Sequence record: NZ_CP029448.1
DNA length: 64,000 nt
Source: a plasmid
Direction: 5' to 3' (one strand)
Shown here: piece by piece, positions 23,574 through 32,417 of the stretch
Layout of the letters: each line of letters starts with the position of its first letter
Numbering within the stretch: the first letter of the stretch is position 1
Notes under the pieces: model-generated
Databases searched by the model: none
What the model saw: only the letters and a program-made list of their open reading frames with translations
What the model was told of the DNA's origin: nothing
Program-made: the position numbers and the translations under genes

Positions 23574-23978
23574 TTCCGTTTTCTGAGACGACCCCTTAAT
23601 GTCTGCTTTGTGCCATGAGCGGACGTTGCTAAACGTAGTTGGGTAATCGAGTCTCTTCCCGGCACGCATTCTTTATCAGGGCAAGCTTGCTCCCTTTAAG
23701 TATCTGCGCGTGCAGCTCCCGCTCCCAGAAACTGGCATCAACGGTGATGTTAAAATTAGGGCTGTATATTGCTTTTTCCGCCCCTGTCAGGCTCTGACTA
23801 TAGCTGGACCAATTGAACCGGTTTCTTTATTATCTACTCAAACATGAATGCAGTTGAAACATTCGGGTAAGCTTTATCAGGTATGATTTACATGGATAAA
23901 TTTGTCGCATATTTCTCCTTAAAGATGAGACAAATATGTAAGTTCGATAAAAAAGTACTATCTATATAACAGGATTTA

Positions 23979-24561
23979 ATGATGTCAATTGCTACCATCG
24001 GGCCTGCAAAATACGATTTTCAGGATTTTGTTTGTATAAAGTTTGCGCTGGATTTTTATAAATTTGAGAATGCAACTCTCATTGTTGAAGGCGAAGGGGG
24101 TGAGGATGCGGAAATTTCTGCAGACATTGACGGCACGAAGATTGTGTATGAGATTCAGGTGAAAGGTTCTGAAGAGCATTTCGGCCTCCCTCTTTTGGCA
24201 GAATGCCTCAGCCATTTTCCAGCACATGAGCCCACTCACTTTTTCCTAGAACGCCTAGTTAACGATCCAAATCGTTTTGCCGTCATGGTGATGTCGGGGC
24301 GCGCGAATGATTCTCTTCAGAAGTTTATACCAAGAGGGAACTGGCGTGGCAAAGAACATAGCACCATTTATTTCACACTTCAGGAAGCCGAACTGCTGAT
24401 TGATGCAATGCGGAGTCATGCTGAATCGTTGAAAGGATCTGATCTTAAGGCTGAAAGAAAAAAATATCTGAATGACTACTTAACGGGTATTGACAGAAAA
24501 TCCCTCACCGCAGCATTTAAACGACTCATTATCATTGATGGCATCAAAGATACAGACCTAA
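23979..24561 (+). pseudogene. N-terminal part (aa 1-194) of an unknown ~404-aa protein encoded in AT-rich DNA, interrupted by IS5
   Basis: MMSIATIGPAKYDFQDFVCIKFALDFYKFENATLIVEGEGGEDAEISADIDGTKIVYEIQVKG...; the frame continues across IS5 in-frame once a 4-bp duplication is removed. Confidence 0.55.
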
Positions 24562-25757
24562 GGAAGGTGCGAATAAGCAGGTCATTTCTTCCCAAGCTGA
24601 CTCGCTGATTAAAATTTCGCGGATCTGGGCCGATTTTTTTCCCGCAAACACATCGAATCAGCCTATTTAGGCTATTTTTTCCACCATTTCTGGCGTTATT
24701 TCCGGTTTTTACTGAGATCTCTCCCACTGACGTATCATTTGGTCCACCCGAAACAGGTTGGCCAGGGTGAATAACATCGCCAGTTGGTTATCGTTTTTCA
24801 GCAGCCCCTTGTATCTGGCTTTCACGAAGCCGAACTGCCGCTTGATGATGCGAAACGGGTGCTCCACCTTGGCACGGATGCTGGCTTTCATGTATTCGAT
24901 GTTGATGGCCGTTTTGTTCTTGCGCGGATGCTGCTTCAAGGTTTTTACCTTGCCGGGACGCTCGGCGATCAGCCAGTCCACATCCACCTCGGCCAGCTCC
25001 TCGCGCTGTGGCGCTCCTTGGTAGCCGGCATCGGCTGAGACAAATTGCTCCTCTCCATGAAGCAGATTACCCAGCTGATTGAGGTCATGCTCGTTGGCCG
25101 CGGTGGTGACTAGGCTGTGGGTCAGGCCACTCTTGGCATCGACACCAATGTGGGCCTTCATGCCAAAGTGCCACTGATTGCCTTTCTTGGTCTGATGCAT
25201 CTCCGGATCGCGTTGCTGCTCTTTGTTCTTGGTAGAGCTGGGTGCCTCAATGATGGTGGCATCCACCAAAGTGCCTTGGGTCATCATGACGCCTGCTTCG
25301 GCCAGCCAGCGATTGATGGTCTTGAACAATTGACGGGCCAGTTGATGCTGCTCGAGCAGGTGGCGGAAATTCATGATGGTGGTGCGATCCGGCAGGGCGC
25401 TATCCAGGGATAATCGGGCAAACAGGCGCATGGAGGCGATTTCGTACAGGGCATCTTCCATGGCACCGTCGCTCAGGTTGTACCAATGCTGCATGCAGTG
25501 AATACGCAGCATGGTCTCCAGCGGATAGGGCCGTCGGCCATTGCCCGCCTTGGGATAAAACGGCTCGATGACAGCGGTCATATTCTGCCATGGCAGAATC
25601 TGCTCCATGCGGGAGAGGAAAATCTCTTTTCGGGTCTGACGGCGCTTAGTGCTGAATTCACTATCGGCGAAGGTGAGTTGATGGCTCATGATGTCCCTCT
25701 GGGATGCGCTCCGGATGAATATGATGATCTCATATCAGGAACTTGTTCGCACCTTCC
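24562..25757 (-). mobile_element. IS5 (1196 bp)
   Basis: 16-bp IRs GGAAGGTGCGAATAAG (24562-24577) and CTTGTTCGCACCTTCC (25742-25757). Flanks CTAA / TTAA are YTAR-type, with one mismatch. Confidence 0.9.
24709..25689 (-). CDS. tnp: IS5 transposase
   Basis: 326 aa, [37 protein letters not shown]... Confidence 0.9.
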
Positions 25758-26393
25758 TTAAGTCCTTATGCACCTATGGCGTTTGATTATGTTCTGAGGT
25801 TTTTTGAGGATAAGGAGGAATTGCTTTGTGAGGTTATCAACGTATCGGATGAATCGCGATTGCAGAAAATTTTTGACTACCTATTTTACTTTTATCAGGA
25901 TTCCAATCCCGAAAATCTTCCTCTCGTATGGGAAACGTTGTTCAGTCGAGCTACTGAAGATGTAATCTGCGATAACTGGCTGCCGTTGTTCGGTAGATAT
26001 GCCAATCGTATCTTTAAAGATTTTCTCGTTGAAGAAATGGAAAAATTCATCCCGCAACGCTATATTCATATATTTTTAAAGAAAATTCCCGATACGTTTT
26101 ATTACATGTACTCCCATAATTTTCTGAAAAGTGAATTTTGTGAACATAAAGGTAATGAAATTATAGTAAGTGAAGAGATGATGTCTGTGTTTTATAAAAA
26201 CATCAATGACCGAATGGTCAAATCACCTCCAGTACACCATAACACCTATGATCACATTATAAACACATTAAGGAAGATGCATGGTTCGGAGGAAATCATT
26301 CAGGCTTGGAATGATGCAAGGAGCAGCTTGTTTGAGTATACATCCCATGAGTCTCCTTTCCTCCCTCCTGCTTTAAATGACTGGCAGAACTAG
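25758..26393 (+). pseudogene. C-terminal part (~aa 195-404) of the IS5-interrupted unknown protein
   Basis: ...SPYAPMAFDYVLRFFEDKEELLCEVINVSDESRLQKIFDYLFYFYQDSNPENLPLVWETLF...; AT-rich, same frame as 23979..24561 after removal of the 4-bp TSD. Confidence 0.55.
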
Positions 26394-26571
26394 CAGCCTC
26401 ATAATGTCGCAGTACTCACTGCGGCATTATTCATCGAATCCGTTTCTGCTAAAATCTATCGTACTTGAAGAGGATCGGAAATAATTCACGGTCAAGCAGC
26501 TGACCTGCTCCCCGTTGATTAATACACCACGATGTTAGTAATGTCTTCATAAGCCACATGAGGACATCCCC

Positions 26572-26835
26572 ATGAAGAAGCGTTTTTCCGACGAACAGAT
26601 CATCAGTATCCTCCGCGAGGCTGAAGCCGGGGTTTCTGCCCGTGAGCTCTGCCGTAAGCACGCCATTTCCGACGCCACCTTTTACACCTGGCGTAAGAAG
26701 TATGGCGGTATGGAGGTGCCCGAGGTTAAGCGCCTGAAGTCGCTTGAGGAAGAGAACGCCAGGCTCAAGAAGCTGCTTGCCGAAGCCATGCTGGATAAGG
26801 AGGCGCTTCAGGTGGCTCTGGGGCGAAAGTACTGA
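26572..26835 (+). CDS. IS3-family OrfA (HTH)
   Basis: 87 aa, [44 protein letters not shown]... Confidence 0.8.
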
Positions 26836-31584: not shown

Positions 31585-31593
31585 CCCATTTGA

Positions 31594-32224
31594 TTCGAAT
31601 TTAGCAGTGACTCAAATGCAATTATTAAGACTGTACGTTCTTAATGTTATAGTTTCGTACGCTAGCGATCCTGCATTCCGACAAATTGATGGTTCGGTAA
31701 TAACTGAAAAATTAAGAACGATTGGTGTAGGCGACTCTTTTACACATCGCGTACTTGTTGATTTATGCAATAAAAGATTTTTATTTACTGTAAATCACGG
31801 TGAGCCTACAGCTTCATCAAGTTTCATACCATCTCGGTTGGGTGGTTATATTGCAAAAGAACTTATTAGTAATTTCACATTCATAGAATGTATGCTTTAT
31901 GATACATATATAGCTGATGCTAAGACATGGGGGAAATTGAGAGATCTGAGCGGGAAAATTGAGTCTGAAAGAGATGTAATAAAAAGGATCACGATGCGTG
32001 TAAGCCGAGCGAAAAGTTTTTATTATCAAATGGAAAAGCTTATTTCTCCGCTTTGTTCTGAGGCTATTATTAGAGGATTGCCTTCACAATGGTGTTCTAA
32101 TCCTCTTCGGGAGCGTTTACCCGAGTTAAGAAAAGAGTTAGGAAGGGTCCTTCATTCTGCGAAAAAGACATATCAACCAAAACAGGATGATACGTCTAAG
32201 TATTTCCTTGATGAATCGGTATAA
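31594..32224 (+). pseudogene. C-terminal 209 codons of the IS903-split nuclease-NTPase protein (helical sensor-like region)
   Basis: ...PFDSNLAVTQMQLLRLYVLNVIVSYASDPAFRQ...; in-frame with 28654..30527 once the IS and one TSD copy are removed. Confidence 0.6.
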
Positions 32225-32226
32225 AA

Positions 32227-32252
32227 AATGGGGCTGCCATGCCCCATTTATA
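32227..32252 (+). terminator. Rho-independent terminator
   Basis: AAAAAATGGGGCTGCCATGCCCCATTTAT hairpin (GGGGC/GCCCC) in AT-rich context, directly after the stop codon. Confidence 0.6.
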
Positions 32253-32417
32253 ATTCACCACGGTGCAAAGATTTTATTTTTCATGCCAAAAAGTGCCTTC
32301 ATAATATTACAATTGCAATTATTGTTGCAACTAATTAGAACTGTAAAATAACAAATTCATTAGAAATGGCCGCTGAGTTATTATCTTCTGGAGCGGCCTC
32401 TTTGGCATAACTTTATT

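Follow-up and report, generated by a model that had tools for sequence, protein, structure and literature searches.

Does the low-GC (guanine plus cytosine) interval at ~23595–32437 in a 64,000-nt stretch of the plasmid NZ_CP029448.1 (this whole stretch is called the window below) derive from one foreign island, or does it bring together DNA of separate origins? A sequence-only reading of the window had favoured a single AT-rich island with a ~404-aa open reading frame (ORF), an 834-aa ORF and three insertion sequences (ISs), one in each of these ORFs and the third between them. The data gathered here point to another history: the interval quite probably holds what is left of two independent modules of one gene each, which encode a nuclease fused to a nucleoside triphosphatase (NTPase) and which decayed stepwise through the action of ISs. 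Gene 1, in module 1, is of the 1271-aa WP_226942448.1 type (Cap4 nuclease and nSTAND3), and gene 2, in module 2, is of the 834-aa WP_047062017.1 type (HsdR_N-like nuclease and ORC/Cdc6-like AAA+).

The history was built from segment-wise BLAST of the window against the contigs L001–L003, L014 and L028. Among the sequences used, L002 is pLAP2_020035, L014 is CP188761.1, L018 is CP138703.1, L028 is a 200.8-kb contig of GCA_054165965.1, L004 is another IncFII plasmid and L039 is a Pantoea ananatis chromosome. Conservation was read from alignments of 34 gene 1 homologs and 32 gene 2 homologs, and the co-occurrence of both genes was checked in 72,556 PLSDB plasmids.

Two modules and their stepwise decay

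Four stages can be distinguished among the window and its sister contigs. At stage 0 (L002, L009, L020 and others), both genes are intact without an IS in either. The order at this stage is the terminal inverted repeat (IR) of a transposon, the 1271-aa gene, two IS110-family elements, ~1.8 kb of common plasmid DNA, the 834-aa gene, an ISNCY remnant and the backbone (HHA, ars). At stage 1 (L014), IS4321 lies in the IR and an IS1222-like element has exactly the junctions seen in the window; both genes are intact, and the contig is 100% identical to the window over 25758–30527 and 31585–33210. Stage 2 (L028) adds a simple insertion of IS5, IS903B and Tn5403; identity with the window is 100% over 22241–25757 and 25758–40558, the sole difference being a 2601-bp deletion. 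This further deletion, adjacent to IS5, defines stage 3, which is the window itself.

The sister contigs show the course of events. The IS1222-like element, with a 3.6-kb deletion, took out the IS110-rich spacer and left both genes intact. In the second step, the ISKpn26-like IS5 inserted into CTAA at codon 195 of gene 1, IS903B (probably as a copy of an identical element 17.5 kb off) into codon 625 of gene 2, and Tn5403 at position 33211. In the third, the IS5-adjacent deletion of 2601 bp took codons 195–1060 of gene 1 out of the window. Both genes are dead there, and the decay is recent, because what is left of the native DNA shows 100% identity with intact alleles. The independent hits by different ISs that had been proposed are supported, and their intermediate stages are kept in public contigs. 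The three ISs (IS5-family, IS1222-like and IS903B) are all present, but they had been taken for plain insertions whereas two of them come with deletions (2.6 and 3.6 kb). The process is ordinary IS-driven gene decay and leaves current concepts unchanged; its worth lies in a four-stage series with all intermediates in public assemblies, on a clinically relevant multiresistance plasmid.

Gene 1 survives in the window as two stubs. The left remnant of module 1 is 100% identical to L014 and L028 and 99.9% identical to L002, and the right remnant is 100% identical to L002 9586–10329 and to L014 from 7105. In L002, L014 and many other contigs, the full 3816-nt (1271-aa) ORF follows on the right side of the same transposon IR, and the 2597 nt between the two stubs are missing from the window. 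The ~404-aa ORF was rejected as a gene, since it is a fusion of 583 nt from the start and 636 nt from the end of this 3816-nt gene. The apparent in-frame join came from a left IS5 boundary set at 24567, the first 5 nt of the element (GGAAG) having a chance resemblance to the native sequence. Because the true boundary is at 24562, 5 nt leftward, which gives a left stub of 583 nt, the two stubs are out of frame; a false ORF born of a 5-nt error at an IS boundary is an annotation trap. The surviving 5' stub (window 23979–24608) keeps its upstream region and encodes nearly all of the Cap4-type nuclease domain (194 aa, followed by a 15-aa IS-encoded tail), without NTPase or sensor; L028 and the window evidently both tolerate this stub.

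The element that lies between the stubs has the IRs GGAAGGTGCGAATAAG and CTTGTTCGCACCTTCC, matches the NCBIfam IS5 transposase model (E=7e-110) and is ISKpn26-like according to the annotation of its relatives. It shows the size (~1.2 kb), the 16-bp IRs and the 4-bp YTAR duplication of ISKpn26, except that the CTAA duplication is lost on one side in the window, where the flanks are CTAA and TTAA and there is therefore no target duplication. The identical copy of L028 went in as a simple insertion: a CTAA/CTAA duplication flanks it, and the remainder of gene 1 is present (1037-aa residual ORF). The window lacks L028 4504–7104 (2601 bp), a loss that begins at the right end of IS5 and ends at TTAA. 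It is either an IS5-adjacent deletion or the product of recombination with a transient second IS5 copy. According to the latter proposal, which may be entertained tentatively, a second, directly oriented IS5 inserted at TTAA, and the interval was lost when the two copies recombined homologously. The right flank TTAA fits the YTAR target of IS5 and could be the surviving half of the second copy's duplication, and the left flank CTAA is the duplication present in L028, but no contig with two IS5 copies in gene 1 was found among those examined. Since one-step intramolecular transposition gives the same end product, the sequence cannot separate it from this two-copy recombination. IS-adjacent deletions are classical IS biology, and the present case conforms to them: the IS5 copy is kept with one original flank, 2.6 kb is lost beyond its other end and the deletion endpoint is YTAR-like, nothing being unusual apart from the preserved intermediates.

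Gene 2 was interrupted by IS903B, so named in relatives, which has the length (~1057 bp), the terminal IRs and the 9-bp target duplication of IS903 (here CCCATTTGA, at 30519–30527 and 31585–31593). It is a textbook simple insertion and the sole simple one among the three ISs. Removal in silico of the element and of one copy of the duplication gives a 2505-nt ORF that is 100% identical to the intact gene of relatives, which upholds the 834-aa ORF of the sequence-only reading. A second IS903B copy, 100% identical and inverted, is located at 11934–12990, 17.5 kb away; a local hop is likely, because this identical inverted copy is present in the same window. The upstream copy lies in the region 6304–22200, and near-identical plasmid relatives of that part carry IS903B and blaSHV genes. 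An inversion or other rearrangement between the two inverted copies is possible.

The third element, located between the two genes, belongs to the IS3 family (NCBIfam IS3 transposase, E=5.8e-73) and ends in TGACCTGC and GCAGGTCA. The Rfam model RF00383 (IS1222_FSE) matches it with 156.8 bits (gathering score 45), which agrees with its earlier IS407-group label. Its flanks, CAGC and AAAG, show no target duplication, and it stands in place of 3566 bp of L002 (10330–13895), a stretch with two IS110-family elements in which a 164-aa ORF also ends. The same junctions exist in L014, where both large genes are intact. The element is just 90% identical to the IS3-family copy of L003.

Are the two genes nevertheless parts of one ancestral island? 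Their adjacency and common orientation in this plasmid lineage, their lower GC content than that of the flanks and their shared nuclease–NTPase type would agree with it, but five observations make a single functional pair cut by three ISs very improbable: (i) the ~404-aa ORF is made of two stubs of a 1271-aa gene; (ii) the GC content differs between module 1 (43%) and module 2 (36%); (iii) in the IS-free state, a stretch of 4.6 kb, made of IS110 elements and common plasmid sequence, lies between the genes; (iv) IS903 alone is a simple insertion in the window; and (v) each module is found without the other, as described below. Among the 72,556 PLSDB plasmids, both genes occur together only in a pLAP2-like lineage of IncFIB(K)/FII(K)-type plasmids. 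The single ancestral island is contradicted by these observations; the modules rather appear to have become neighbours within the accessory region of an IncF plasmid of Klebsiella type.

Module 1 comprises the nSTAND3 gene with ~0.4 kb upstream and ~0.3 kb downstream. L002 6026–10533 and L039 9618–14125, from the Pantoea ananatis chromosome, are 99.56% identical over 4508 bp (the equivalents in the window are 23599–24561 and 25758–26500). Because of this identity over 4.5 kb, a recent capture or exchange of the module between Pantoea and Klebsiella-type plasmids is suggested. In Pantoea, gene 1 is a lone insert of 42.7% GC amid metabolic genes of 51–58% GC. On the plasmid, the homology with Pantoea starts 5 nt inside the Tn21-type IR junction and stops where an IS110-family element begins. 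A Citrobacter chromosome carries a gene 1 homolog (82% identical), also as a low-GC lone insert, beside HigA-like and CcdAB genes.

Module 2 is found at 95% DNA identity in L004, between a tyrosine recombinase gene and a CAP12-PCTIR TIR gene, at 97.8% in an Enterobacter plasmid and at 87.6% in eight of the 5426 complete E. coli genomes; the E. coli copy examined occupies a moron slot in the nin region of a lambdoid prophage, with the replication genes on one side and hokD/rusA/Q on the other. In L004 (12721–13827), as in L005 and L006, gene 2 is followed by a convergent 368-aa CAP12-PCTIR TIR gene and a GNAT/TacA toxin–antitoxin pair, just upstream of repA, an arrangement reminiscent of a small "defence slot" that the plasmid keeps between the end of tra and the replicon. 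A gene 2 homolog with 71% identity occupies the same slot before an IncFII repA.

Domain organisation and candidate function

The defence-type character that had been proposed for the two large genes holds, in that both encode an N-terminal PD-(D/E)xK nuclease followed by a P-loop NTPase. The N-terminus of gene 1 (~aa 1–195) is predicted to be a Cap4-type PD-(D/E)xK nuclease, because the AlphaFold model of aa 1–196 (pLDDT 89; this N-terminal part alone was modelled) matches in Foldseek LmuA (9ux7, E=2e-5), the CBASS nuclease Cap4 (7yib/6wan), the N-terminus of Avs3 (8dgc) and HamA, with a probability of 1.0 and, for LmuA, Cap4 and Avs3, TM scores of 0.4–0.5. The Pfam Cap4_nuclease model is matched by one of the 34 family members, weakly. 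Six residues (E36, E41, D42, E57, Q59 and K61) are invariant in the 34 homologs, down to 25% identity, as is the Walker A motif G277...G282-K283. Pfam nSTAND3 (PF20720) matches aa 264–361 (48.3 bits for a cutoff of 27.2) and all 34 homologs too, and no SIR2 Pfam match was obtained for gene 1 or any of them. A conserved region of ~650 aa follows the NTPase in the alignment of homologs. The family forms 73 clusters of ~1270-aa proteins in Gamma- and Betaproteobacteria.

Gene 2 encodes an HsdR_N/Mrr-like PD-(D/E)xK nuclease, an ORC/Cdc6-STAND-type AAA+ NTPase, a winged helix and a short helical tail; the model comprises a nucleotide-binding domain, a helical domain and the winged helix, then ~130 helical residues. 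The signatures D62...E75-A-K77, Walker A GxVGxGKTT (306–314) and Walker B D438/D441 are invariant in the 32 homologs. NACHT, AAA_18 and G-alpha Pfam matches of gene 2 all fall under their cutoffs, and some homologs have precomputed NACHT, AAA_16 or KAP matches. The protein matches phrog_14719 over its full length. A word-indexed search gave 398 matches and an exhaustive one 255 clusters at 50% identity (E<=1e-30), nearly all of ~800–870 aa. A comparison of two alleles with 95% DNA identity gave 10 aa differences and a dN/dS of 0.037, which indicates strong purifying selection on the family; the gene is functional where intact.

By analogy with Avs and NLR-like proteins, we infer that both genes are of the immune-sensor type, with an effector nuclease and a P-loop NTPase switch. 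The NTPase would hold the nuclease inactive until a ligand derived from a phage or another mobile genetic element triggers nucleotide-dependent oligomerisation, whereupon the assembled nuclease domains would degrade DNA and abort infection. The large C-terminal region of gene 1 is a likely protein sensor on the same analogy. As gene 2 has no repeat sensor, its trigger may be bound by the winged helix and helical tail or may be a nucleic acid, which is the least secure step of the model. Both proteins would resemble Avs in their probable working, membership in a named Avs family not being established.

Several results weigh against this immune-sensor proposal. PADLOC v2 gave no AVAST/Avs match and no assignment to another system for 66 family members (E<=0.01 for the 34 gene 1 members), the matches obtained being weak P-loop ones to the candidate PDC-S73 (the best of gene 1) and N-terminal nuclease ones to DrmMI and type IIG models. 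Sequence and profile searches of PDB returned generic P-loop matches and no Avs, Cap4 or HsdR relationship. Neither large protein belongs to an NCBIfam family, and neither family is tied to defence by experiment or curated model. Gene 1 has no recognised defence genes as neighbours in Pantoea, and a tblastn search of 50,697 deposited phage genomes with gene 2 gave no match, although PHROGs contains a full-length family and the gene is present in E. coli prophages. For gene 2, a large C-terminal repeat or sensor domain is absent from the model and the nearest folds are replication initiators rather than NLR or Avs proteins (Avs4 ranks 41st in Foldseek), and for these two reasons the STAND label is not secure.

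Could the genes then be something other than immune sensors, gene 2 being a type IV/Mrr-like endonuclease or an ORC/Cdc6-like replication or partition protein, and gene 1 a STAND regulator unrelated to phages? The best folds of gene 2 (Cdc6/ORC, DnaC, TnsC and MarR-type winged helices, NLRs coming slightly lower), the resemblance of its N-terminal domain to the HsdR N-terminus and to DrmMI/type IIG nuclease modules, and the lack of an Avs model match for either family agree with such roles. However, an invariant nuclease site joined to an NTPase, in a lone low-GC moron of nin regions or in plasmid slots near TIR and toxin–antitoxin genes, is a typical signature of defence cargo. A restriction-type enzyme would still have a defence function, and nSTAND3 joined to a Cap4 nuclease mirrors a validated Avs architecture (PMC13581612). 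These other roles are accordingly considered improbable, and the immune-sensor proposal is preferred. The two conserved, uncharacterised nuclease–NTPase families (WP_226942448.1, and WP_047062017.1/phrog_14719) can be flagged as candidates for defence screens.

Borders and composition of the interval

The interval is a compositional mosaic rather than a uniform AT-rich block. Its GC content is 44.6% as a whole, 39.0% for the native DNA and 52–54% for the ISs, with flanks at 56–65%. The drop noticed in the sequence-only reading is real for the native DNA, but "one-third GC" roughly fits only the 834-aa gene (36%). From left to right, the values are 65% for the Tn21-family tnpA (19269–22240), 48% for the IS4321-like element (~22248–23573), 42% for the left remnant of module 1, 54% for the IS5-like element, 38% for the right remnant, 54% for the IS1222-like element, 47% for the leftover plasmid block, 36% for each part of module 2 (28498–30527 and 31594–32437), 52% for IS903B, and 56% for both the ISNCY pseudogene (32438–33210) and Tn5403 (from 33211). 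The native content amounts to 5360 bp, close to the ~5.3 kb estimated before.

Table 1. Positions in the window of the features in and around the interval
Feature	Position	Strand	Details
IS4321-like IS110-family element	22248–23573	+	located within the mercury transposon's 38-bp terminal IR (Tn21 family)
Outer part of the Tn21-family IR	23574–23594		ends ...CCGTTTTCTGAGACGACCCC / TTAATG; native DNA from 23595
Left remnant of module 1	23595–24561	+	upstream region and nt 1–583 (aa 1–194) of the 1271-aa gene; ORF start 23979
IS5-family element, ISKpn26-like, 1196 bp	24562–25757	-	transposase 24709–25689, minus strand
Right remnant of module 1	25758–26500	+	nt 3181–3816 (codons 1061–1271 and stop, to 26393) and 107 bp downstream
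IS1222-like IS3-family element, 1221 bp	26501–27721	+	orfA 26572–26835, orfB 26859–27692, frameshift element 26802–26919
Leftover of a block common in Klebsiella plasmids, IS110-associated	27722–28497		GC 47%
Module 2	28498–32437	+	834-aa gene at 28654–30527 and 31594–32224, split after nt 1874 (codon 625)
IS903B, 1057 bp	30528–31584	-	transposase 30584–31552, minus strand; NCBIfam IS5-family transposase, E=4.6e-105
ISKpn21-like (ISNCY) transposase pseudogene	32433–33165	-	truncated and frameshifted; tblastn

The left edge had been placed at the end of the mercury-transposon IR, and it indeed lies there: the junction 23594/23595 is common to L002, L003, L014 and L028. The IR is continuous in L002 and broken in the window by the IS4321-like element, whose 334-aa product matches the NCBIfam IS110-family transposase model (E=7.5e-102); the element is labelled IS4321 in relatives and is 100% identical in L014 and L028. 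IS4321 and IS5075 are known to target the IRs of Tn21-family transposons. To the left of IS4321, the Tn21-family tnpA (19269–22247) is just ~85–93% identical to that of L014 and L028, whereas IS4321 and the DNA to its right are identical. Because tnpA diverges from these otherwise 100%-identical contigs, an exchange of the transposon module left of IS4321 seems to have taken place, its breakpoint lying at this element or close to it. In L018 (9540–9640), different DNA (a resolvase gene and a 463-aa ORF) abuts the native sequence exactly at 23594/23595; its flank (GCTCTCCTTAAT), sought in the window as the empty site of the mercury transposon, is not present there.

At the right edge, a truncated transposase pseudogene had been recognised and is confirmed as ISKpn21-like: a tblastn search with L014's 467-aa ISNCY transposase aligns aa 1–248 in two frames (E=3.5e-97). 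The low-GC DNA stops at ~32433–32437, at the pseudogene as had been noticed, and homology to the plasmid context of L004 stops there too, but the sequence common to relatives runs on to 33210, so that this edge was only partly right; the IR of Tn5403, annotated in relatives, begins at 33211.

Between the modules, the leftover plasmid block has a larger counterpart in L002 (12022–14472, ~2.45 kb), found at ~90% identity in very many Klebsiella plasmids and represented by its right end at window 27722–28298. It contains a 315-aa IS110-family transposase ORF and ~1.4 kb of unannotated DNA, and exceeds the length of a canonical IS110-family element. Two minus-strand ORFs in this part (27702–28142 and 28146–28589) have no match in Pfam, PADLOC, NCBIfam or PHROGs. 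As they lack family matches and span the homology breakpoints at ~28298 and ~28498, they are probably not genes, and they were rejected as partner genes.

Loss of the genes and comparison with known systems

Was the loss of both genes selected, or merely tolerated? The data do not discriminate between the two, and we lean towards hits that were tolerated in what is the sole dispensable DNA of an IS-rich region. Of a permissive segment of ~10 kb, the two genes occupy ~64%; simple arithmetic from the coordinates of L014 gives p ~0.19 for two random insertions falling one in each gene, and on account of this value the double hit is not statistically remarkable alone.

Adaptive loss would mean that both nuclease sensors were costly or auto-toxic in a new host, for instance because proteins of resident prophages or plasmids triggered them after a transfer from Klebsiella to Serratia, and that the IS knock-outs were selected. 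Both genes were struck in one short step, from L014 to L028, in DNA that is otherwise 100% identical. The disrupted lineage is also successful: the exact truncated 634-aa gene 2 product is annotated by NCBI in Serratia marcescens and is present in 30 index blocks. Among the eight E. coli chromosomal copies of gene 2, two are broken, one by IS1A and one split (H102 NZ_CP010171.1, H107 NZ_CP043414.1), and a 398-aa C-terminal fragment allele is found on 58 contigs (e.g., among L034–L037), always near the contig start. However, the intact configuration is far commoner in databases (hundreds of contigs have undamaged copies of both; 319 index blocks contain the exact 834-aa sequence and 64 the exact 1271-aa one), and AT-rich DNA is a favoured target of IS903 and IS5. 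Together with the share of dispensable DNA that the genes occupy, and with a Serratia host assignment that rests on source names alone, this makes selected loss a possible but rather doubtful explanation, and tolerated hits the preferred one. A bolder proposal, which appears unlikely, holds that gene 2 represents an unnamed compact immune nuclease family differing in action from the protein-sensing Avs, and that the loss of both genes was selected as they were auto-toxic in the new Serratia host; if true, the initiator-like module of gene 2 could serve to sense DNA or an intermediate of replication. The decay series is in any case convenient for asking whether abortive-infection genes of plasmids have a cost when the host changes.

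That ISs can inactivate toxic immunity genes has been documented in CRISPR-Cas systems, where they transpose into cas genes (Nat Commun 2023, PMC10359306). As in that case, defence-type genes are broken here by resident ISs, and intact and broken alleles coexist in related replicons; the targets differ, being uncharacterised STAND-type genes on a plasmid.

With regard to the proteins themselves, at least 90 defence-associated STAND families are recognised, and Avs3 and Avs7 use the Cap4 nuclease as their effector (PMC13581612). Gene 1 resembles these two systems (Gao et al. 2022; Lee et al. 2026, PMC13581612) by its Cap4-type nuclease, its central STAND NTPase and its large C-terminal region, and also as a single-gene module that moves horizontally. 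However, its NTPase is of the nSTAND3 type and it has no sequence match to the solved Avs3, Avs4 and Avs7 chains or to AVAST models. The nSTAND3 domain is the NTPase of Avs5 (bioRxiv 10.1101/2025.07.08.663546), a SIR2-nSTAND3-repeat sensor with which gene 1 shares the PF20720 domain and a comparable size class. The effector differs, being a Cap4-type nuclease and not a SIR2 NADase, and no AVAST type V match was found for gene 1.

Two other candidates were rejected as relatives: Upx has no NTPase and its nuclease is C-terminal, and the effector of the SAMD9-like Avs9 is AlbA_2 whereas gene 1 has a Cap4 fold. Gene 2, for its part, is most comparable to Avs2/Avs4 and to bNACHT proteins with Mrr-like effectors, with which it shares a D...ExK nuclease, a P-loop NTPase, a helical/winged-helix part and a location on prophages and plasmids.

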